A program made the position numbers and the translations under genes. A stretch of 64,000 nucleotides of DNA from an uncultured Desulfurococcales archaeon (GTDB lineage Archaea > Thermoproteota > Thermoprotei_A > Sulfolobales > WANQ01), in contig CAYXRT010000001.1 of assembly GCA_964467535.1 (NCBI GenBank), positions 86,036-150,035 of the forward strand, in the 5' to 3' direction. Within the stretch, counting starts at the first letter, position 1. Each line of letters opens with the position of its first letter. Positions 2,875 through 60,328 of the stretch are shown here, piece after piece. The notes under the pieces are model-generated. The model did no database searches and had not been told where the DNA came from. It saw nothing but the letters and a program-made list of their open reading frames with translations.

Positions 2875-4518
2875 TTAATTATTTTTATGAATTTTATTAA
2901 CTTCCTCCTCTAATATTTTCCTTGCTTTTTCGAGAAGTGGAGGATTTAATACAAAACCGGGAATGAAAGGTATCTGGGCTTCCCTTTTACATGCACGTTT
3001 TACAATTTTACTTGAACCATAGTTAAGGTATCCATTGATGAAACTTCTAATGAGTTCCTCTGCTATTCTTGGTTTATTATATAATTTAAAAAATGTAAAG
3101 TAGGTAAATTCAGCTATATCCCATGCCATCACGTTTTCATTCTCAGTACTTCTCGCTTGTTCTAAATCAACTAGATATACATACTTTGAATCGTTTGAAA
3201 TGATAAAGTTATCTGGCTTGCAGTCACCTATGGCATATCCTTTACTATGTATTATTGCAAGTACCTCACCTACCCTGTAAAATTCCTTGGGTCTTATAAT
3301 TACTTCCTTAGTTTTTACCATTATCCCTGGAAGTAGAGATAGCCCTTGAATAAATTCCCTAATTAAGATCTTTTTAGATAAATGAACGCCTAAAATCCTT
3401 GGTGTTAGTATATTGTTCTTAGCATCTCTTAACCTTAACATGAAATGATATTCTCTACATAATCTTTCAATAGCATCTAAATAGAAGTCTATTGCTGTTC
3501 TCCCGAGCACTTCAACTATAAACCATTTAAATGCTGATAATGAGGCATACTCCTTTATGACTATAGGATATTTCTCACCATTCTTTTCTATTTCATATAT
3601 TACTGCAGTATATATTCCTGTTCTACGCTTATCTATAATCCTAGCTTTACACCCTTCACCACATAATGACTTGAGTAATTCATTAAGCCACTTGCTTCCT
3701 TTTAATATAATTCCTTCCTTTAACTTTAGGAGTATTTCAGGATACTTAAGCTCTTCAGGGACCTCATACCTTCTTCTCTTTACCTTTGAAGTTATCTCGA
3801 ATGTTATATGTGAAATCTCTGGTAGCCCAGCATACGCATGCGCTAAATAAGAGGCAATGCCTTTAATTAATAGTGATGCTATATTTAGTACCTTATCTAC
3901 TACATTGATTTTCTTTGAGGTCTTTAGTTTAACATAGTCTTCATTTATATACTCTAATATTCCTTCATCTATGAGTTTATTTATTATATCCTTATATTCG
4001 TTTCTAAGTCTCTCACGAATTCTCGGCGTATTAAGCAGTTTTGAATAGCTATACTTTAAAGGTGTATACAACTGAGCTCTTATTCTCATCTTTCTTATCG
4101 GGAAGTATTCTATTGGTACTTCTATGTCTTCGTTCATAACGCTTAGTTTAGCTAGATCATTTACTCCTTCAAGAACTATTCTATACCTATATAATGTTAC
4201 AATGTTTCTTGCTTTGCCTTTATCGTATATTATCTCTATGGGAGCTAATAGCCTTCCTGCAATGAATTCGCCCAAGAAGCCAAAGCTTGCATCAAGTACT
4301 ATTAGTTTGTCATTGGTAATCAGAAGTGCCAATTTTGTCTTATTGAAGTCTTTATAATAGTATCTTAATCCGTAGGGGTACTTAGGCACTATGACTAAGA
4401 CATCGTAGTCGCTATCAGGTCTAGCATATCCTCCTATCCTAGATCCATATAATATTATCCCTTCAGCATTAGGATATAATTCGAGCACAGTTGTTATTAT
4501 CTTGTTATATTCGCTCAT
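2875..4518 (-). CDS. Fusion protein: N-terminal minimal (Pol-beta type) nucleotidyltransferase plus C-terminal RIO/Bud32/Kdo-like atypical protein kinase domain
   Basis: N-terminus LYGSRIGGYARPDSDYDVLVIV matches the GS...DxD NTase motif. C-terminus has IVIKEY (Lys), GDCKPDNFII (catalytic loop D-x-K-P-x-N) and LVDLEQA (DFG-equivalent). Confidence 0.6.
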   Translation of the reverse strand: MSEYNKIITTVLELYPNAEGIILYGSRIGGYARPDSDYDVLVIVPKYPYGLRYYYKDFNKTKLALLITNDKLIVLDASFGFLGEFIAGRLLAPIEIIYDKGKARNIVTLYRYRIVLEGVNDLAKLSVMNEDIEVPIEYFPIRKMRIRAQLYTPLKYSYSKLLNTPRIRERLRNEYKDIINKLIDEGILEYINEDYVKLKTSKKINVVDKVLNIASLLIKGIASYLAHAYAGLPEISHITFEITSKVKRRRYEVPEELKYPEILLKLKEGIILKGSKWLNELLKSLCGEGCKARIIDKRRTGIYTAVIYEIEKNGEKYPIVIKEYASLSAFKWFIVEVLGRTAIDFYLDAIERLCREYHFMLRLRDAKNNILTPRILGVHLSKKILIREFIQGLSLLPGIMVKTKEVIIRPKEFYRVGEVLAIIHSKGYAIGDCKPDNFIISNDSKYVYLVDLEQARSTENENVMAWDIAEFTYFTFFKLYNKPRIAEELIRSFINGYLNYGSSKIVKRACKREAQIPFIPGFVLNPPLLEKARKILEEEVNKIHKNN

Positions 4519-4528
4519 ATCATATCAG

Positions 4529-5445
4529 CTACTTTACTCTTATACCTAACTTCTCCGCCACATAGTATATCATTCCTAATACACAGTTATATCCACTACC
4601 CTTAGATAAGGGATTATTCTCCCTAATTGTAACAATATATTTGAGATCCTCGTCTACTTCAAGCATCTTCCTATATACTTCATCAGCACTATAAATACCT
4701 GATTTAAGTAAATTACTTATTATGTCTTCCCATTCAATTATCTTCGCTATAGCTTTGTTAATTACCTTATTTGCAGGTTCATCACAGACTCCAAAGTGGG
4801 TGACCATTATCTTGCCTGCATTTTCTATAAGAAGTCTCTTAAGACTCTCTTTAGCTTTATCTCCATCAAACATTGGTACAGCTACTGGTATTAACCTTCT
4901 ATCATAATATAATCCTATGGCATCTCCTGTTATAAGAACATTATACATAATCCTATCTGATAAGATAATGATAGTGGATCCAGGACCCAATATATGTATA
5001 AGAAATCTCATAGACAACCTTATAAGTTACGATTGAACATGGACAAAGTATCATATATAGCCTTAACACACATCCATATAGATCATGGTGGAGGAACAAG
5101 TCTATTAATATCAAATTTAGGGGCAAAGCCAAAGGTAATAGTACATCCTAAGGGAGCCAAGCATATAATTAATCCTGAAAAGCTTTGGAAAGCAGGTCTA
5201 GCTGTTTTAAAAGATATAGCAATAACTATGGGAAAACCCGAGCCAGTACCTTCGGACCTAGTTTATAGTATAAATGATAATGAAGTCATAGATTTAGGCA
5301 ATGTAAAGGTTAAAGCAATATACACACCAGGGCATACTCCTCATCATGTATGTTACTTAGTTAAACCAGAAGATGCAAGTACACGTTTATATCCTTGTGG
5401 TTCAGGGTCCAATAGTAATATGTGTTCTGATACTTCTTTTAACAT
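4529..5445 (-). pseudogene. MBL-fold metallo-hydrolase disrupted by an internal 420-bp inversion (4955-5374) plus a 1-nt frameshift
   Basis: The first 23 codons (MLKEVSEHILLLDPEPQGYKRVL) are on the minus strand at 5445-5377. The next parts are on the PLUS strand at 4956-5374: SDKIMIVDPGPNICIRNLIDNL, then ...ALTHIHIDHGGG...TPGHTPHHVCYLVKPED. The C-terminal half is on the minus strand from 4954 (RIMYNVLITGDAIG...MVTHFG...). The ORF-track entries 4529..5017(-) and 4994..5461(+) are fragments of this one gene. Confidence 0.8.
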
Positions 5446-5457
5446 GTCTACTCTCCC

Positions 5458-6414
5458 TTAATGTACTATTGTTATGAATTCAAAAATCTTCTTTGATGCT
5501 GTTATAGGATCTATAAGCCCCTGTAGAACTTTATCTATTATTTCTCTAACTTCATTCCTGTTAGTTATTAACTCCTTAATTCTCTCCTTGAGCCTCCATT
5601 TTAGTAGAAGATCTAGTTCAAATTTTCTTCTTCTTTTTCTTCTCTTGGTTAATTGATTAGTTTTTATTAAGTATTCCATGTGTTCTATCACTTTATTAAT
5701 AACGTCTTTTATACCCTTATTCATTATTGCAGCAGTTAATAATATTGGAGGCTTCCATCCCTCTCGTATAATACCCTCTAATGCAAATTTAACTTGGCTT
5801 AGTGTCAGCTCTGCTTCAGGTTTATCAGCTTTATTTATGACATATATATCTCCTATTTCCATAAGACCAGACTTTATCGCTTGTATTTCATCACCTGCTC
5901 CTGGCATTAATACTACTATAACTGTGTCTACGGCATTCATTATCTGTATATCTGATTGTCCTGCCCCCGTGGTTTCAACAATAATGTAATTGTATCCTAC
6001 TGCATCAAGTATCTCTATTGATAACAACGCTTTCAACGGTAATGATCCTTCACTTAATGACGTCATACTTCTCATAAATACGTTATCTCCTAATACACTT
6101 TGAAGTCTTATACGATCTCCTAATATAGAACCTCCAGTTAATGGACTTGAAGGGTCTATTCCTATGATGGCTATCTTTTTATTCATTTTCTTTAAGATCC
6201 TTGTCATAGACGCAATTAATGTACTCTTACCGGCTCCCACTAATCCTGTAACACCTACAACATGTGCCTGTCCTGTTCTAGGCCAGATGAGATCAATTAT
6301 GTTTAATAATACATCTGGATTAACTTCTATTAATGATATCAGCTTTGATAATGATCCTACATCTCCATCTAATGCACTACTAAGTAATGACTCTACGCTA
6401 CTTCGTATAGTCAT
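5458..6414 (-). CDS. meaB: MeaB/ArgK-type methylmalonyl-CoA mutase-associated GTPase (G3E family)
   Basis: P-loop GVTGLVGAGKST, switch motif VETTGAGQ and NKADK guanine-specificity motif. Heads the mcm operon. Confidence 0.88.
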   Translation of the reverse strand: MTIRSSVESLLSSALDGDVGSLSKLISLIEVNPDVLLNIIDLIWPRTGQAHVVGVTGLVGAGKSTLIASMTRILKKMNKKIAIIGIDPSSPLTGGSILGDRIRLQSVLGDNVFMRSMTSLSEGSLPLKALLSIEILDAVGYNYIIVETTGAGQSDIQIMNAVDTVIVVLMPGAGDEIQAIKSGLMEIGDIYVINKADKPEAELTLSQVKFALEGIIREGWKPPILLTAAIMNKGIKDVINKVIEHMEYLIKTNQLTKRRKRRRKFELDLLLKWRLKERIKELITNRNEVREIIDKVLQGLIDPITASKKIFEFITIVH

Positions 6415-14176: not shown

Positions 14177-14271
14177 TGTAAAGATTTGCTCCTGAACTTA
14201 TAAGTTAAGTTACCTCTAATATAACATCGATTACCCTAGAGTCAGTGACTGTTCTCGTGTAAAGGTTTTTA

Positions 14272-14297
14272 TAGGTCTATGTAGGTCTTGTAGGTCT
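14272..14297 (+). repeat. Three direct TAGGTCT heptamers (14272-14278, 14282-14288, 14291-14297), a candidate subterminal recombinase-binding array at the IS left end
   Basis: Read directly: aTAGGTCTatgTAGGTCTtgTAGGTCTttt, about 20 bp upstream of the tnpA start. The reverse-complement heptamer is present at the right end. Confidence 0.5.
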
Positions 14298-14317
14298 TTT
14301 TATTCTGGAGATGGTCT

Positions 14318-14950
14318 GTGGAGCGTCATTATAGTACTCGGGAAGTTTGTGAGATTCTGGGGATTGCTAATCGTACTCTTCGTAGGTGGATTAAGGAAGG
14401 TAAGATAAGAGCAGTTAATATTGGTGGTAGGTAGAGAATACCAGAAAGCGAGATTAAACGTCTTCTTGGACAACCCGTAGAGCAGATAACAGTTCCTAAA
14501 GTAGCTCGTGTTGTTATCTATGCTCGTGTAAGTGGAGCTAATCAGAAGAAAGAGTTAGAGAATCAAGTAGAAGCACTAAAGGAATATGTAGAGCAAAACA
14601 ACTGGAAGTTAGTAGGAGTAGTCAAGGATATTGCTAGTGGTCTTAAAGAGGATAGAAGAGGATTATGGAAACTTATAGAAATGGCTAAGAAACATGAGTT
14701 CGATGTACTACTAGTGGCTTATAGAGATAGATTAACAAGGTTTGGATTCAAATACCTTGAAGAACTATTCAAGGCTTATGGAGTAAAAGTCATAGTAACT
14801 TTCCAAGAACCGGCTAAGGACTTCTACCAAGAACTGGTTGAGGATTTGATAGAAATAGTGACTTCATTTGCTTCGAGAATCTATGGTAAGCGTAGCCATA
14901 AGTACAGGAAGGTGGTGGAAGCAGTTGAACAAACAATTAAAGACCCTTGA
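14318..14950 (+). pseudogene. tnpA: IS607-type serine recombinase TnpA (MerR-like HTH plus resolvase catalytic domain) with an in-frame TAG at 14432-14434
   Basis: GTG start. HTH region YSTREVCEILGIANRTLRRWIKEGKIRAVNIGGR*RIP, then the catalytic region VVIYARVSGANQK...DVLLVAYRDRLTRFG. The stop replaces the residue expected in GG(R/H)(W/R)RIP. Confidence 0.8.
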
Positions 14951-16913
14951 AAGAACAGTAGTATTAACATCACTACCATTAACTAAGGCTAAGGTTGAGG
15001 TACTTAGTCATGTCTATCAAGTCTACGGTAGAATCCTTACTGAAGCACTAGAATACATGTGGAACAATAATATTACTTCATGGGTTAAAGCTAAGAAAAC
15101 GTTGTATAAGAGGTTTAGGAAGAAGTATCCCGATATCCCTTCACACTATATACATGAAGCTATTCGTGATGCCTCTCAGAGAATCAAGAGCTTCAGGAAG
15201 CTCAAGAAAAAGGGATTAGCTGAAACCGAGAAACCAGTAATTAGGAGATGGAGTGTTGGATGTGACAACCAGTTATGGAAGTTATCATTTGAGGGAGTAA
15301 GAATAGCTACTCATGAGGGATGGGTAAACGTATCATTACAGTTCCATAAACTGTTCTGGAGATACTATAATAGAGGATGGACTCTTAGAAGCTCTGCTAG
15401 ATGGAAACTCATAGGAAGTAAATTATACCTCTATGTAGTATTCATGAGGAATATAGAGGTTAGGAGCTATGCTCAACTAGAATCTATGGTATTGATATTA
15501 ACGAAAATAATGTAACAATATATTGTTATCCTGAAAATAAAGCAATAACTATAGTTACCAACTTATCAAAGATAGTGCTTGGGTACGCTTATAGAAGAGC
15601 AAGGATACAGCAGAAATGGAGTAAACTATTTGGCGCTAAAGATAATAGGAGACTTAAAATAGCGTTGAGGAAACTTAGAGAGAGGAATGTTAAAAGAGAT
15701 ATTAAGCAGAAACTTGCTAGACTTATTACTGATATTCTTAAAGATGGTGTAGTTGTTCTTGAAAAACTACCTAAGAAATTCCAAGACAAGGTTCTTGAAG
15801 AAAGTAGGAAAATAAATGGACTCGACGCTCATAGGTTAAAGCAGTCAAGCATACGAGGAATACTTAAGTTGATAACTGAAAAACTAGAGGAACATAGCAT
15901 TCCCTATGTCTTAATTAATCCTTCTCATACTTCCTCTACATGTCCTATTTGCGGTTCCAGACTCGTTCCGATGACGAGTTAATGGGGGAGGATAGTATGC
16001 ATAACACGTTATATATTACTGATAAAAGAGCTATGGAAGCATTCGGTTATATTGTTGGAGCTGTATTGGGAGATGGTACAGTTTGGAGAAGAAATAGAGG
16101 AGATATTGATGTATATTTATATAATCAGAATATCGGATTAATAACTGAGTTTTGTAAATGCGCACATACATTAAGGTTAAAGTATAGGATAAAAGAAGTT
16201 ATTCGCACTCTGAAACATCCAGAAAGAGAAACATTGCGACTAGTTAAATATTACATGGTTATTACGTACTCTTCACCTATAGGAGAAATAATAGCAAAGT
16301 ATAAACAAGCACCATACAAATGGAGAGTCCCTAGGGAGTTTATTAATAATAAAAGCTACCGCAGGGGTTTTCTAAGAGGTTTAATTGATACAGAGGGGTG
16401 TATATCTATAATTTATAGGCGAAATAGAAAGCCACTTATTAAATTCGTCATAGTTATATCATCATGCTACAACGCACTAGCGGAGCTCAAGAATTATTTA
16501 GAACTTAAGGATAACATAAGGCTTCATTTAAATTACAATAATAGTAAGAAAAATACTTACGCTTTGTATACTTATGATAGACAAGAAATCTTAAAAATTA
16601 CTTCCCTAATAAAGTATCTTGCTCACACAAGAAAAAGTAAGAAATTTACAAAAGTACTTGAGGTTCTTTGAATAGTTGTGCCCAGAGGAATGGTTGGAAA
16701 CCAAGGATAATGACATGTTCTAGATGTGGATTCACGCATGATAGGGATGTCGTGGGGGCTATGAATCTAGTTAGAAAGTACCTCCTAGATGTGGGGGGTT
16801 ATGCCGTCTACTCCCCGAAGGGTGCCCATGACCACCATGTAGAGTGGCTCGTAGCCACAATGAAGCATGAAGTTGAGGCTCAACCCGCCCTAGCGAGACC
16901 TATAATGACTTAG
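14868..16913 (+). pseudogene. tnpB: TnpB (IS605/IS607 OrfB, RuvC-like RNA-guided nuclease family) with a frameshift near 15464-15490 and a 697-bp insertion at 15981-16677
   Basis: Three frame segments: 14868-15515, 15464-15982 and 16678-16913. RuvC-I IYGIDINENN, RuvC-II VVVLEKL, zinc finger CPICG...CSRCG and RuvC-III HDRDVVGAMN are all recognisable. Confidence 0.8.
15997..16671 (+). CDS. LAGLIDADG homing endonuclease (double-motif, monomeric type), free-standing ORF nested inside tnpB
   Basis: The two LAGLIDADG motifs are FGYIVGAVLGDGTV and GFLRGLIDTEGCI. GGAGG lies 6 nt upstream of ATG 15997. The ORF is uninterrupted to TGA at 16669-16671. The ORF-track start at 15940 lies in tnpB sequence and is probably not used. 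Confidence 0.8.
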   Translation: MHNTLYITDKRAMEAFGYIVGAVLGDGTVWRRNRGDIDVYLYNQNIGLITEFCKCAHTLRLKYRIKEVIRTLKHPERETLRLVKYYMVITYSSPIGEIIAKYKQAPYKWRVPREFINNKSYRRGFLRGLIDTEGCISIIYRRNRKPLIKFVIVISSCYNALAELKNYLELKDNIRLHLNYNNSKKNTYALYTYDRQEILKITSLIKYLAHTRKSKKFTKVLEVL

Positions 16914-16930
16914 GACGGGAAACGGTCATA
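16790..16930 (+). ncRNA. Candidate TnpB-associated right-end guide RNA (omega/reRNA) scaffold
   Basis: A markedly GC-rich stretch in an AT-rich genome overlapping the tnpB 3' end. Hairpins are GTGGCT-cgt-AGCCAC (16844-16858) and GTTGA-ggc-TCAAC (16872-16884). The position matches where omega RNAs are encoded in TnpB elements. Confidence 0.3.
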
Positions 16931-16940
16931 AAAGTATAAA

Positions 16941-24091: not shown

Positions 24092-24565
24092 TTACTTTAA
24101 TGCTACGTGTAAGCTGCTTCTTGTGGCTTTTAGTCCTGGCTCTCCGTGTTGTACTCTTTTACATGTCATGCTGAATTCTCCTAGGTAATGTCCTATCATT
24201 TCGGGTACTATCTTTACTGGTATGAATTCCTTACCATTGTATACAGCAATAGTTAATCCTATCATTTCTGGAAGTATTATCATGTCTCTTACATGAGTCT
24301 TTATTACAACCTTCTTTCCTTGAGCTAGCAGTTTCCTGGCCTTTCTAATTTTTTCTAGTAACCTTCTCTGTTGAGGTGTAAACCCTCTCTTTAGACTCCT
24401 TCTTTGCCTTGCTGGGAGTAATTTGATAAATTCGTCCATGGGCATAGTTAGTAGTTCTTCTAGAGTCTTACCTCTATATCTAAAGTTCCTCCATTCATGG
24501 GGTATTTCAAATCCTAGTATCTTTGTTATGTCTGCGATCCTCCCACTTGCACTTCTTGATGGCAT
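24092..24565 (-). CDS. rps19p: 30S ribosomal protein S19 (uS19)
   Basis: [16 protein letters not shown]...[13 protein letters not shown]...VYNGKEF...GHYLGEF...HGEPG. Start placed at Met56 of the listed ORF, because the 5' extension overlaps the divergent gene. Confidence 0.88.
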
Positions 24566-24708
24566 TCTAAACACCCTTCCCTTAGGTATTATCACACTAG
24601 ATTCGAGTTTAAACCTTATCTGTATGTCCTTAAATAAGCTTATCGTTTTTAATGTTGTAGGTTCTTTATAAGTCGTCGGGCCTCTCTCAGTTATGAGGAA
24701 GGATACTA

Positions 24709-25302
24709 GTGCTACGTAGGTTATTTTCATGGTGGTTAAGTAAGTGCAAGATATTTATTGTAGGATGTATATTAGTACTCATACTTGGAATAGCTTTTGG
24801 TTCTATTTTCTGGCCCCTTTTTGGGGAACTTATAAGAGGGGTTGCAAAGAGATTTATTGGTCTAAGGCCTTTTACACTTGAAATGTTCATCTATATCCTA
24901 ATCAATAACATCTCAATATTATGTGTATGGATTTTTATAATAGGAGGATTAACGGTCTTATTACCTTACATGATCTTACTGATTAACGCTGTTACATTAG
25001 GTTCCTTTGTAAGCTACATGCATGTAACGTATGGTATAGACATGTTAGTAATGTTGTTGCTACTCATACCTCACGGTATCTTTGAGATTACTGCCATCAT
25101 TATGGGGGTTTCATGTTCAGCATTCTTTGGTATTAATGTTTGGAAGATGGTGCTAAAGAAAAAGCCGCTTAGTGAATTGAAAATCGACTTCATTAATGTA
25201 ATTAAGATGATAGCATTTGCCTCTATACTAATGGTTCTTGCTGCTCTTGTTGAAACATATATTACTCCACTTTTTTACTTTCTCTTTTCAAGTAGGTTTT
25301 AA
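24709..25302 (+). CDS. SpoIIM/DUF95-family integral membrane protein
   Basis: Multi-TM protein with the [13 protein letters not shown] motif characteristic of DUF95. Confidence 0.55.
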
Positions 25303-31502: not shown

Positions 31503-31922
31503 CCTATCACGTAATGGGAATAAGCTTTAGATATAAATAACCTATCACAGATATCATCTAAACTTACTACTCGCAGATTCTTGCAAATCACTTAGAGCTT
31601 GATACCATAAAGAACTTATTACTCCTTATTCCTTAGGAGGTAAGAGGACTCAACCTTGAGTCCGTTGTATTTATTCTCATACCCTAAAACACATATACTA
31701 GTCCTTAGACAACCTTGATAAAGACGCTAATTCATTAAGAGAAGCATCTTTGGATAAATGTTTAACAAAATCATGGCGATTAAGCTCAGAAATGTTCATT
31801 ATTAATCTATTCTCTGTTAGTGTAACTTTATTCCAAGAGGCTAGAATATCATCTATATGATTAATAAATAGAGTATATTTACAACAGTCAGGTTTAAATC
31901 CCGAAGTATAGGAGATTACATC

Positions 31923-40349: not shown

Positions 40350-41111
40350 ATGGCACGCATGGGTGGTAGGAAGCACCTAAAAACCTATGTAGCACCTGCA
40401 TGGTGGCCCATACCAGTTAAGGAAAGAGTATGGACTGTAAAGCCTAGACCAGGTCCTCATCCGATTGAGAGGTCTATTCCACTGTTAATACTTGTTAGAG
40501 ACATTTTAGGTTATGCTAAAACTGCAAGAGAAGCTAGGAAGATAATTGCTGAAGGAAAGATTAAAGTTGATGGTAAAGTTAGAAGGGATTATAAATTCCC
40601 TGTAGGTTTAATGGATGTTGTTGAAATTATACCTACAGGTGAAACTTATAGGCTTATTCCTTATCCAGTGAAATTCTTAACATTACATCCCATTCCTAAG
40701 GAAGAAGCTTCATTTAAGCTATGTAGGATTAATAATAAGACAACCGTTAAGAGAGGTCATATTCAATTAAATCTACATGATGGAAGAAACCATTTAATTA
40801 GAGTAAAAGATCCTACAAATCCTGTAGAGGATACATATAAGACCTTAAGTACAGTTAAAATCTCCATACCTGAACAGGAGATACTAGATTACGTACCACT
40901 GGAGCCTGAAGTATTAGCAATTATTATTGATGGAAGAAATGTTGGAAGAGTTGGAAGAATAATTGATATAACAAAGGGCATGGGTAGACGTAGATCTCTA
41001 GTAACATTAGAAGATGCTAAAGGAGAGAAGTTCCAAACAATTCTAGATTACGTCTTCGTTATTGGTAGAGAAGAGCCGCTAATAAGCTTACCTCAAGGTG
41101 CTTGGAAGTGA
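40350..41111 (+). CDS. rps4e: 30S ribosomal protein S4e
   Basis: [18 protein letters not shown]...[23 protein letters not shown]. Confidence 0.92.
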
Positions 41112-41674
41112 GTAGCGTTCTACCTAAGGAGTTAATAGAATCTATTCTTAAGAGATGGGAAGAACAACCAATGCTCAAGCCTAGGATTGCAAAGGTAACA
41201 GTAAATATAGGTGTTGGTTCTTCAGGTGAAAGGTTACAAAAGGCATTTAAAGTCTTAGAAATGCTTACAGGGCAAAAACCTGTTCCTAGAAGGGCTAAAA
41301 AGACTATTAGAGAATTCGGAATAAGAAGAGGAGAAAATATTGCAGTAATGGTTACTCTAAGAAAGGAAAAAGCAATAGAATTCTTAAAGAAAGCACTTGA
41401 AGCCATAGGTTGGAGGATAAGCGCAAAGAGCTTTGATGAATATGGTAATGTGGCTTTTGGAATAAAGGAGCATATATCAATACCTGGAGTTAAGTATGAT
41501 CCTGAAATAGGTATTTTCGGAATGGATGTCGCCATAACCTTGGAAAGACCAGGATTTAGGGTTCTGAGAAGGAGAAGGTGTAAGAAAAAACATATACCTA
41601 GAAGACATAGGGTTAGTAAAGAGGAGGCAATGGTATTCCTGGAGAAGGAACTAGGTGTAAGAATAGTACCATAG
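41102..41674 (+). CDS. rpl5p: 50S ribosomal protein L5 (uL5)
   Basis: [11 protein letters not shown]...[16 protein letters not shown]...GMDV. Exact start uncertain (TTG 41102 or GTG 41108). Confidence 0.9.
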
Positions 41675-41685
41675 GGGTGAGAAAC

Positions 41686-41850
41686 ATGGGTAAGTTCAGG
41701 CCTCCAAAGCATAGAGCATTTGGTAAGGGTTCAAGAAAGTGTAGAAGATGTGGATCGCATGATGCGGTTATTCAAAAATATGGATTAATGTTATGTCGAC
41801 AGTGCTTTAGAGAAATTGCACCAAGTCTAGGCTTTAAGAAATATAACTAG
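41686..41850 (+). CDS. rps14p: 30S ribosomal protein S14 (uS14, zinc-ribbon type)
   Basis: 54-aa ORF below the track cutoff: [54 protein letters not shown]. Canonical position between L5 and S8. Confidence 0.9.
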
Positions 41851-51472: not shown

Positions 51473-51572
51473 GCCGGGGTGCCCGAGCGGACTAAGGGGC
51501 CGGCCTGGAGACTACCTGGAAAGCCGGTGGGGCGCACGCCCCGCGCGGGTTCAAATCCCGCCCCCGGCGCCA
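51473..51572 (+). tRNA. tRNA-Ser(GGA) with an 11-nt intron at canonical position 37/38 (51511-51521); CCA encoded
   Basis: Acceptor GCCGGGG/CCCCGGC, anticodon stem CCGGC/GCCGG, loop CUGGAG|A, long variable arm UGGGGCGCACGCCCCGC and T-arm GCGGG-UUCAAAU-CCCGC. A GC-rich island in AT-rich DNA. Confidence 0.88.
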
Positions 51573-58709: not shown

Positions 58710-59657
58710 TTATTTAGTTAAACGCTTCATTAGAACTAGCTCCTTACTTAATACTTCATGAGGGTATTTAGAGAAATAATTATGATATAATCGCTCTTCT
58801 ACGAGTATCCGTAATGTTTTAAACCCTAGCTTTTTCGAAAGACAAAACATGTAGTCTAGTACCAAAGGTATTTTACCTTCATCCCTAATCCATAATCCTA
58901 ATTTACCTTCATCCTTACCAGACCACAAGCTCTCTAAAACAAATACTGCTTGAAGCTCAGGTATATAGCCTTCTAAACCAACAATTCTATCTTCCTCAAT
59001 AGCGTAATCCCATAGGCTTTTAAGCCAAAACGTAAATGACGATTCTATTCTAGGTGATATAAATTCCAAATCCTTTACCTCATTGTAATGTTGAGGGAAG
59101 TCCATTATTTTATAACTGGGAGATTCTTTACTAATGGTAATGTTCTCGATGTTTATTTTGAGGTTAATTATATTGTATGCTATTTCATTTAATCCGCACT
59201 TCTTGTAGAAGTCTATAGCTTCTTTTGCTGGCCAAACACTAATTGTACGGCAATTATTTTTCCTTCGCTAATTCTATCGCTTTATTTATTAATGCTCTAC
59301 CTATACCTCTACGTCTATAATTTCTATGAACCTCTAAAACATCTATGAACGCTGTTCTTCCTAAAATACCCTTCTCTTCACCTATTAGAGCTCTAATTCT
59401 CCAACAACTTTACCATTCACCATAGCAACTAATGGATACTGTTTACTAGTCAGTATGTAGTTTAAATGTATGGATCAAGTTTCAATACTCATTCAGGGAC
59501 CTCCATGACTAAAACGTTCTTCAATACTAAGCTCCTCATATTTAGCCTCAACTTCTTTACCATTAACATACTTAAACCATTTATCCACGCTAGAGCAGTT
59601 GACGTCAACAATGCCTTTAACGTCATCTAAAGAAGCTTTTCTCACGTTAATATTCAT
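58710..59657 (-). pseudogene. GNAT N-acetyltransferase fused to a C-terminal domain, inactivated by two in-frame TGA codons and at least two frameshifts
   Basis: Minus-strand reading gives MNINVRKASLDDVKGIV...HGGP(TGA)MSIET(TGA)SIHL...VNGKVVGELEL/frameshift/IGEEKG...VHRNYRRRGIGRALINKAIELAKEK/frameshift in an A-run/NNCRTISVWPAKEAIDFYKKCG... This continues in frame into the listed ORF 58710..59105. Confidence 0.75.
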
Positions 59658-59695
59658 TACACCTCCCCAAATGATGTTTTCTAGTTGTCTTAAAA

Positions 59696-60328
59696 CTAAG
59701 CTAACATTTTCCTAACTCTAATACCTCTCTTTAATAGTAGATCTGCACATTGCTTACAGAAATACCTTGATTTACCATCAACCTCAAATACGCTATTACT
59801 AAAATTCATTACACACTTAGGTGTTAGGCAATGGTTTAAGCCAAGTACATGACCTACTTCGTGAATAACTTCTTTACATGTTCTTTCAATAAATTTATTA
59901 TAATCAGATTCAAGACCATAAAATTCGTTCCTGAGCCTCCTTAAGTAAACTACACATACCTTTAATACGCTAGATGCTTCACCGAAAACAAAGTTAAGGC
60001 CCCTAACATAGGCGTCGATATCTCCTATACCTACAACAACATCATAACCATAACCTTCGGTATTTCTATACAACCAATCTAGTATTTTATCGCTATTGTA
60101 TTGAGCTCTATGCCAATTATATACTGTAATAGGGGGTGAAAGTATAACACCATTAACATCAACTATTACTCTTTCAAATGTATCCTTTAGTACGGATACT
60201 ACATTATCAATTATACTTAGATCAATAGCTGTTAAAGGTTGTAGTAGTATTCTAAGAGCATCCATAAACCTGAACCCCTTTGACTCTCCAGCATAAAACT
60301 TAAACCTCCCCCATACATATACTATCAT
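59696..60328 (-). CDS. amzA: Archaemetzincin (peptidase M54)
   Basis: HEVGHVLGLNHC zinc site plus CVM...C..C second site. The real start may be Met at 60265, since the longer ORF abuts the tRNA-Phe gene. Confidence 0.8.
   Translation of the reverse strand: MIVYVWGRFKFYAGESKGFRFMDALRILLQPLTAIDLSIIDNVVSVLKDTFERVIVDVNGVILSPPITVYNWHRAQYNSDKILDWLYRNTEGYGYDVVVGIGDIDAYVRGLNFVFGEASSVLKVCVVYLRRLRNEFYGLESDYNKFIERTCKEVIHEVGHVLGLNHCLTPKCVMNFSNSVFEVDGKSRYFCKQCADLLLKRGIRVRKMLA

Follow-up and report, generated by a model that had tools for sequence, protein, structure and literature searches.

A small balanced inversion has very probably turned a hydrolase gene of a methylmalonyl-CoA mutase operon into a pseudogene in an uncultured Desulfurococcales archaeon

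We characterized a broken gene for a metallo-β-lactamase (MBL)-fold hydrolase in 64,000 nucleotides of contig CAYXRT010000001.1 (assembly GCA_964467535.1) from an uncultured Desulfurococcales archaeon; this whole stretch is referred to below as the window. The gene occupies positions 4529-5445, with its pieces on alternating strands, between meaB and a gene for a nucleotidyltransferase (NTase)/kinase protein, in the cluster that encodes methylmalonyl-CoA mutase (MCM, genes mcm). Its central part is inverted relative to its two ends, and the same arrangement was found in every haplotype sampled. We conclude that the locus is very probably a recently fixed pseudogene, produced by a one-off illegitimate inversion of ~425 bp together with a one-base deletion, and neither a switch nor an assembly error. 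The original prediction, drawn from the letters of the window alone, had read the locus as one MBL-fold gene of the mcm operon broken by an internal inversion and an additional frameshift. That core reading was right, and what had to be revised was the position of the breakpoints and the range of explanations.

The gene now lies in three pieces. The first (5370-5445, minus strand) comprises codons 1-25 (MLKEVSEHILLLDPEPQGYKRVLAS) and the first base of codon 26; it starts at the ATG at 5445, 12 nt past the meaB stop codon, and opens with MLKEVSEHILLLDPEPQGYKRVL. The second piece, the inverted centre (4945-5369, 425 nt, plus strand), holds codons 26-167 with the motifs THIHIDHGGG and TPGHTPHH, and thereby the HxHxDH residues H68, H70, D72, and H73 as well as H156. 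The third (4529-4944) is back on the minus strand and consists of the last two bases of codon 168, codons 169-305, and the stop codon, with D175, H217, and the C-terminal helical lid. Translation established the reading of the first piece, and its right breakpoint comes from hidden Markov model (HMM) scoring and the closest relatives; the limits of the centre rest on these two sources and on purine skew, and the third piece on alignment and a structure model. The start codon, the placement of codons 1-23 and of the C-terminal half on the minus strand down to 4529, and the plus-strand orientation of the middle block had all been predicted and were confirmed by translation, as was the in-frame joining of both junctions when 4955-5374 is re-inverted. 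When the centre is flipped in silico, a 305-aa protein results that is collinear with 14 intact homologues and keeps every invariant residue, so that the expected collinearity with related intact MBL genes was borne out by alignment. The un-inverted junctions would read ..CTTGCATCTT|ACATAATCC.. and ..GTTAAACCAG|ATAATGTTC.. A check that is free of homology pointed to the same segment: the purine fraction of the plus strand is 0.39-0.40 in the flanking minus-strand genes, 0.567 in 4945-5369, and ~0.39 again in meaB, so that the skew changes sign exactly at 4945-5369.

To place the breakpoints, 633 candidate pairs free of stop codons were scored against an HMM made from the homologues alone. The pair originally proposed (4955/5374) reached 384.7 bits and ranked ~225 of 633, and when the protein rebuilt from it was aligned with ten homologues, it lacked 6 residues at the N junction and had 5 extra residues (RIMY..) at the C junction relative to every one of them. 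This is the pattern expected of a misplaced breakpoint, and the earlier description of the inversion as a precise one of 420 bp was therefore wrong in detail. Pairs whose two ends sum to 10314 (s + e = 10314) scored 408.3-411.5 bits, with the maximum of 411.5 bits at 4944/4945 to 5369/5370. The reconstruction from this top pair aligns without gaps at both junctions and regains the invariant Tyr26 and a conserved 'PD'. In the three closest relatives (contig L001, also numbered L094, and contigs L095 and L096; 60-67% identity), the two regions read LAT-Y-I/M-VL and EPDNVVVTGDA, and the reconstruction has LAS-Y-IIL and KPDNVLITGDA at the same places. Because the junction residues of the closest relatives match in this way, 4944/4945 to 5369/5370 is the best-supported placement, and it would correspond to an inverted segment of 425-427 bp with 1-bp microhomology at its ends. 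Alternative breakpoints at 4939-4942 to 5372-5375 (431-437 bp), which would involve a 3-bp CAT/ATG repeat, score 3.2 bits worse and appear less likely. No inverted repeats flank the segment. The 4-bp inverted repeat ATCT/AGAT to which the breakpoints had been assigned does exist, but it lies off the true junctions and is at chance level, as 60 short imperfect inverted pairs occur within this 1 kb as background. A 16-nt inverted pair of 81% identity (4920-4935/5361-5376) was also considered as a recombination site and rejected; it is not at both junctions and is likewise at chance level.

The gene carries a second lesion inside the inverted segment, as had been predicted near 5031-5036. One base has been deleted within 5031-5034, as judged from relatives and translation, and this places a TGA in frame at 5034-5036 (plus strand), just after the start of the motif TACGATTGAACATGG at 5028. 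The 917 nt of the locus equal 2 modulo 3, which leaves one frameshift after re-inversion. Relatives carry Tyr-Gly at the deletion site, and an ancestral TAC GGA TTG has likely lost one G; loss of a T from GAT TTG is a possible alternative. The deletion is common to all sister contigs that were read, and since it lies within the segment, the gene stays broken in either orientation.

Since the broken gene is not one protein, exact look-ups were made with the products of the intact genes on either side of it, meaB and the NTase/kinase gene. Both were found on contigs of ENA ERZ27248328 (246 kb), JGI 3300014911 (47.7 kb), and ENA ERZ27227320 (13.9 kb), and also on Logan contigs of SRR7051321 (7.1 kb) and SRR6823441 (3.9 kb). 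These five contigs were read; all have the same pair of opposite-strand open reading frames (ORFs) in place of the gene, and all are 100% identical to the window over 4300-5700, which includes both junctions and the frameshift. They differ from the window and among themselves at 10 single-nucleotide polymorphism (SNP) sites over ~10 kb and, with the window included, represent at least five consensus haplotypes. Gene callers deposit the broken gene as a 140-aa ORF on the plus strand and a 160-aa ORF on the minus strand, and both have been recorded from NCBI, JGI, ENA, and Logan. The 140-aa ORF, which spans a junction, occurs on seven contigs, the longest of 282,637 bp; a SPAdes-style contig of ERZ1742239 (16.8 kb) probably accounts for one of the seven. 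A 162-aa version of the minus-strand ORF with a TTG start had no match in the exact look-up; gene callers begin this ORF at an ATG (160 aa). The assemblies come from several runs and are of different make (JGI, MEGAHIT-style (k141) and SPAdes-style (NODE) from ENA, and Logan), and the JGI samples concerned are metagenomes of Guaymas Basin hydrothermal sediment (PMC6478937, PMC8065059).

The state before the inversion is preserved in a sister lineage from other Guaymas Basin samples, in which the gene is intact (contigs L001/L094, L095, and L096). The sister clade and the window share the gene order IleRS, 152-aa protein, GATase4, MeaB, MBL, and NTase/kinase, with identities of 69, 78, 55, 77-79, 60-67, and 72-73%, respectively, so that the divergence of the MBL protein falls within the range of its neighbours (55-79%). 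A homology search of 5.8 billion proteins returned many intact homologues of 300-306 aa, of which the best, P0001 of the sister lineage, shows 58% identity over 100% of the query; of the seven proteins in its cluster, six have 306 aa and one has 279 aa. The orthologues are thus single collinear genes of ~306 aa, and not the two separate genes whose occurrence elsewhere would have spoken against an inversion. In a genome scan with the family alignment, the source genome was not among the matches listed, the best of which (44% identity) came from metagenome-assembled genomes (MAGs) of Desulfurococcales. A Tajima-type relative-rate test against P0001 with eight outgroups gave no sign of acceleration, with 25-36 changes on the side of the window and 22-33 on the other (p ≥ 0.2). 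Because the rate is not accelerated and all invariant residues, including the metal ligands, are retained, the inactivation is recent when measured against the divergence from the sister lineage, and the same lack of acceleration means that its age can be estimated no more finely than this. Enough time has also passed for it to become fixed and for a second lesion to be present beside it. Private substitutions were tried as a sign of decay and discarded: the window is the sole deviant at four of 15 near-invariant columns (K82S, A157T, G183R, and G225A; p = 0.015), and the intact but divergent homologue P0010 has six such deviations.

Three readings had been put forward for the locus, namely a fixed inactivating rearrangement, an invertible switch caught in the OFF state, and an assembly artefact, and the evidence supports the first of them. 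For the last, the genome would have to contain an intact gene of which the assembler mis-oriented ~425 bp. It is true that the window is one assembled sequence and was judged from assemblies and not from reads, yet the same junctions and frameshift recur in independently built contigs with different flanking SNPs, and there is no repeat of more than 4 bp that might confuse an assembly graph. The identity of the junctions across different assemblers, runs, and flanking SNPs, in seven contigs of which five were read and in at least five haplotypes, effectively refutes an assembly error, the probability of which we regard as negligible. The switch deserves closer attention, since intragenic invertons, in which a segment lying wholly inside a coding region is inverted and gives rise to premature stops and altered ORF calls, are an established class (Chanin et al., 'Intragenic DNA inversions expand bacterial coding capacity', PMC10028968). 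Only one intragenic inverton has been reported from archaea, and invertons found ~100% in one orientation may be locked (PMC10028968). An intragenic inverton in the OFF state, either locked or rarely flipping, would thus have a site-specific recombinase toggling codons 26-167 within the mcm operon. Such a reading is consistent with an inversion that is balanced and in frame at both junctions, with the presence of a serine-recombinase gene 9 kb away, and with the fact that the evidence on orientation is at the level of assemblies. However, an intragenic inverton is bordered by inverted repeats, which measure 11 nt in the validated thiC example, is flipped by an invertase, and occurs in both orientations per sample (PMC10028968); none of these features was found in the sequences examined here. 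Complementarity at the supported breakpoints amounts to 1 bp (3 bp at the alternative ones), and the orientation was inverted in all five contigs read, with the inverted-state junction ORF on seven, as majority orientation in assembled contigs. A Pfam screen of part of the window's ORFs gave a single recombinase gene near the locus, of the IS607 transposase type (14318-14950), which is interrupted by an in-frame TAG and is not an invertase. Ten candidate ON-state products (the set covered three placements of the breakpoints, two start codons, the frameshift either kept or repaired, and the N-terminal fragment) were absent from ~15 billion proteins by exact look-up, whereas both OFF-state ORFs were found by the same method. 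Flipping the segment back would also fail to restore the reading frame, as the one-base deletion leaves a stop after re-inversion and keeps the gene dead either way. The other genes of the window that are opposite in strand to both neighbours are ordinary genes, none of them a second inversion, so that flipping is not a pattern in the window. An inverton is therefore very unlikely. A broader version, in which the segment serves, or served until recently, as a programmed invertible element inside the gene of a hyperthermophile-type archaeon, dispenses with long inverted repeats, and is toggled by an unrecognised recombinase to control a hydrolase of the mcm operon that handles acyl-CoA, and in which the frameshift is a later locking lesion, we find hardly credible; if it were true, a minority un-inverted subpopulation would be visible in raw reads.

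A further alternative takes the two ORFs at face value, as genuine separate genes of a split or neofunctionalised MBL protein. Both are indeed predicted by gene callers, and the 140-aa ORF (5039-5461, plus strand) retains HxHxDH, matches Lactamase_B, and is deposited as a Lactamase_B protein; the catalytic residues of the broken gene as a whole are also all intact. Against this, the homologues each consist of one collinear chain of ~300 aa, and a split was seen in this population alone. In the 140-aa ORF, residues 1-59 with the first four strands are missing and the last 28 residues are antisense: the ORF spans the right junction, enters the antisense of the first piece, and overlaps the meaB stop. 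The 160-aa ORF (4529-5011, minus strand) spans the left junction and opens with ~22 residues from the antisense of the inverted piece before it continues into the true C-terminal half. In an AlphaFold model of the intact sister protein P0001, moreover, the two breakpoints cut through one β-sandwich, at the N junction within β-strand 25-29 and at the C junction in the turn that follows strand 162-167. Judged by this model, no fragment is a folding unit, and no piece would have a complete β-sandwich core or the full set of metal ligands; for this reason both ORFs are almost certainly artefacts of the rearrangement, and their being two real genes is most improbable. The remaining alternative concerns only the origin of the inversion and would still end in a pseudogene. 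Strand exchange by serine recombinases takes place at a core of 2 bp, and IS607 transposases are not very selective in their targets. The inversion might accordingly be an accidental side product of the IS607-family TnpA whose gene lies 9 kb away, at a time when this enzyme was still active; that gene has the YARVS catalytic motif and is disabled by the single TAG alone, and a microhomology of 1-3 bp would suit such an event. No likeness was detected, however, between the breakpoints and any repeat or end of the element, the locus contains neither another copy of the element nor a footprint left by it, and nothing sets this route apart from ordinary illegitimate recombination, so that we think it very improbable.

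Under the preferred reading, that of a pseudogene made by a one-off inversion, the ancestral gene, with meaB before it and the NTase/kinase gene after it, would have had 305-306 codons for an MBL-fold metallo-hydrolase of the ST1585/PqsE-like type. A single balanced inversion placed codons 26-167 on the other strand with no bases gained or lost, and a separate one-base deletion at 5031-5034 added the frameshift. We infer a one-off illegitimate event, because the junctions show a microhomology of 1 bp (at most 3 bp) and are free of recombinase-type repeats; it may have proceeded by microhomology-mediated rejoining of two breaks or by a switch of template during replication rather than by site-specific recombination. 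The outcome would be a null allele, and the lesion itself is fixed in all haplotypes that were sampled from this population of the Guaymas Basin. In being reciprocal, with no bases gained or lost, junctions of 1-3 bp, no recombinase sites, a null outcome, and an independent second lesion, the locus is like other pseudogenes that arose from small balanced illegitimate inversions, and it is a new instance of this known type of lesion and not a new mechanism. It differs from them in that it comes from a natural population of an uncultured archaeon, is fixed in at least five haplotypes, and has its before-state in the intact orthologue of a co-occurring sister lineage. It differs from the intragenic invertons described above in having no repeats, no invertase found nearby, a single observed orientation, and an internal frameshift that defeats reversibility.

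Several points weigh against this reading. The relatives from which the breakpoints were placed share only 60-67% identity, and the preferred pair leads the alternative by 3.2 bits and three junction residues. The search for ON-state products was for exact sequences, so that one substitution or a shortened contig would hide a match, and consensus assemblies give the majority orientation, which a minority un-inverted subpopulation would escape. A metagenome scan with the 30-mer 5380-5409, which lies immediately beyond the right breakpoint, gave 0 matches, but in a collection that is without this population (a known JGI contig was missed too), and it says nothing about ON alleles. Likewise, the homology search missed the 140-aa and 160-aa ORFs of the window itself, both of which the collection contains, so that its failure to return a near-identical intact allele counts for little. 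The seven contigs may include repeated assemblies of single sequencing runs; those of ERZ27227320 and SRR6823441 share a haplotype. Finally, the fragments' lack of expression or activity is deduced and not directly shown.

With respect to the consequences for the cell, the original start codon now yields a 30-aa peptide that runs into antisense sequence, and the single uninterrupted frame that an MBL domain needs is lost, with codons 26-167 on the opposite strand and one nucleotide deleted. The fragments are thus presumably without function. A strong polar effect on the downstream genes is not predicted, because no run of five or more T was found on the operon transcript in either orientation and the downstream genes are intact and conserved.

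The reconstructed protein is a clear member of its superfamily. It matches PF00753 (Lactamase_B) over residues 27-206 with 54.6 bits (cut-off 22.7; E = 1.8e-14), and the metal ligands H68, H70, D72, H73, H156, D175, and H217 stand in columns that are invariant across 15 sequences; among NCBIfam models, none reaches its cut-off. By sequence, the nearest solved structure is ST1585 of Sulfolobus tokodaii (3ADR; E = 2.9e-25, residues 26-265). The model of P0001 has a pLDDT of 97 and a pTM of 0.93, and its helices 226-300 form a lid. When this model of the intact sister protein, which is 60% identical, was used in Foldseek, 3ADR was found with E = 1.4e-19 and TMt 0.77, and PqsE with TM 0.78-0.81 over 315-323 columns. 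The lost protein is therefore predicted to resemble ST1585 and PqsE of Pseudomonas aeruginosa (PDB 2Q0I/2Q0J, 5HIO) in having an MBL core that holds an HxHxDH di-metal site, with the active site covered by a C-terminal helical lid, although the identity is only ~30% to the former and 16-17% to the latter. PqsE is a 2-aminobenzoylacetyl-CoA thioesterase. By analogy, a role as acyl-CoA thioesterase would fit a gene in an acyl-CoA mutase operon, which we take as a lead only. ST1585, for its part, is the nearest structural homologue of PqsE and has the same C-terminal lid; it does not complement pqsE and has no known function (PMC3769375).

The five genes of the cluster that flank the pseudogene are all intact and all on the minus strand. 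The first is meaB, for the MCM-associated GTPase (5458-6414; PF03308, E = 9.3e-76). Downstream, at a distance of 10 nt from the stop codon of the pseudogene, begins the NTase/kinase gene (2875-4518), the 547-aa product of which has an N-terminal nucleotidyltransferase domain (PF01909, E = 3e-7) and a C-terminal domain like Bud32/RIO kinases (TIGR03724, E = 5.9e-13, below cut-off). It is followed by the gene for the small, B12-binding subunit of methylmalonyl-CoA mutase (2323-2808; PF02310, E = 1.3e-29), by that for a glyoxalase-fold protein (1907-2320; PF13669 and PF00903), which from its fold and operon context we read as a putative methylmalonyl-CoA epimerase, and by that for the large, catalytic subunit of the mutase (215-1903; PF01642, E = 8e-225). 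Membership of the hydrolase gene in this operon is indicated by gene arrangement only, namely its strand, its tight spacing on both sides, and the same order in the contigs of the sister clade. The link is not shared by the family as a whole: mcm or meaB lies within 6 kb in four of the 81 genomic loci with homologues (L001-L081) and in none of 15 more distant metagenome loci, and the association of the hydrolase with mcm genes is specific to this lineage. In being tightly packed among co-oriented genes, with meaB on one side and those for the mutase and epimerase on the other, a placement kept in the sister clade, the hydrolase gene is like the MeaB-type accessory genes of mcm operons; it differs from them in the lineage-specific nature of the link and in being, unlike meaB, evidently dispensable in this organism. 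The position of an NTase/kinase fusion inside an mcm cluster is itself unusual, and a homologue of 30% identity lies near meaB in a Desulfurococcales MAG.

The significance of the locus is modest, but it offers a clean natural case in which a balanced inversion of less than 1 kb, with hardly any homology at its junctions, has inactivated a gene. Such inversions are rarely documented because gene callers make two plausible ORFs of them. In the present case, a 140-aa 'Lactamase_B' protein and a 160-aa hypothetical protein are already in public collections, and the locus could serve as a test case for pseudogene detection that is aware of inversions. That the ST1585/PqsE-like hydrolase of the mcm operon is dispensable in this lineage narrows the roles to be considered, for example to that of an accessory or proofreading thioesterase and not an essential step of the pathway.

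Elsewhere in the window, a decayed IS607-family element lies between thiI and cysS (14177-16940). Its tnpA encodes a helix-turn-helix and a serine-recombinase domain with the YARVS motif in one frame, broken only by the TAG at 14432-14434, and its tnpB has a frameshift near 15480-15515. The zinc-finger domain of tnpB (Cas12f1-like TNB) is split between its two CxxC pairs by an ORF for a 243-aa two-motif LAGLIDADG endonuclease (15940-16671) in the third frame. The tnpB frames would be rejoined if an insert with a length of 1 modulo 3 were removed, and an intron that carries the endonuclease was therefore considered; the best score of a simple scan for bulge-helix-bulge motifs was 7, equal to the background median, and Rfam gave no intron. 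At the level of gene calls, the arrangement is the same in three sister contigs. The contig of ENA ERZ27227320 (k141_457890) stops 147 nt upstream of cysS, at window position ~16794 and inside the right end of the element, where the other assemblies read through; this suggests that the element is multi-copy or polymorphic in that sample.

The sole tRNA gene of the 64 kb (51473-51572, plus strand; ~100 nt) was reported by ARAGORN as 'tRNA-???' with no anticodon and scored 40.1 bits against the Rfam tRNA model; it probably contains an intron. In the ribosomal-protein cluster, a 217-aa ORF (41059-41712, minus strand) was rejected as a real gene, being a shadow of uL5 (41102-41674, plus strand), behind which uS14 (41677-41850, plus strand) comes next. 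The S19 ORF (24092-24730, minus strand) has ~110 extra N-terminal residues in the mechanical ORF list, in which the start was probably chosen too far upstream. The window is otherwise 92% coding, and two regions stand out by the absence of any ORF of 70 aa or more, 31503-31922 (420 bp) and 59106-59695 (590 bp); the latter holds a 54-aa minus-strand ORF (59493-59657), which is situated directly upstream of a gene for a 210-aa protein (59696-60328).

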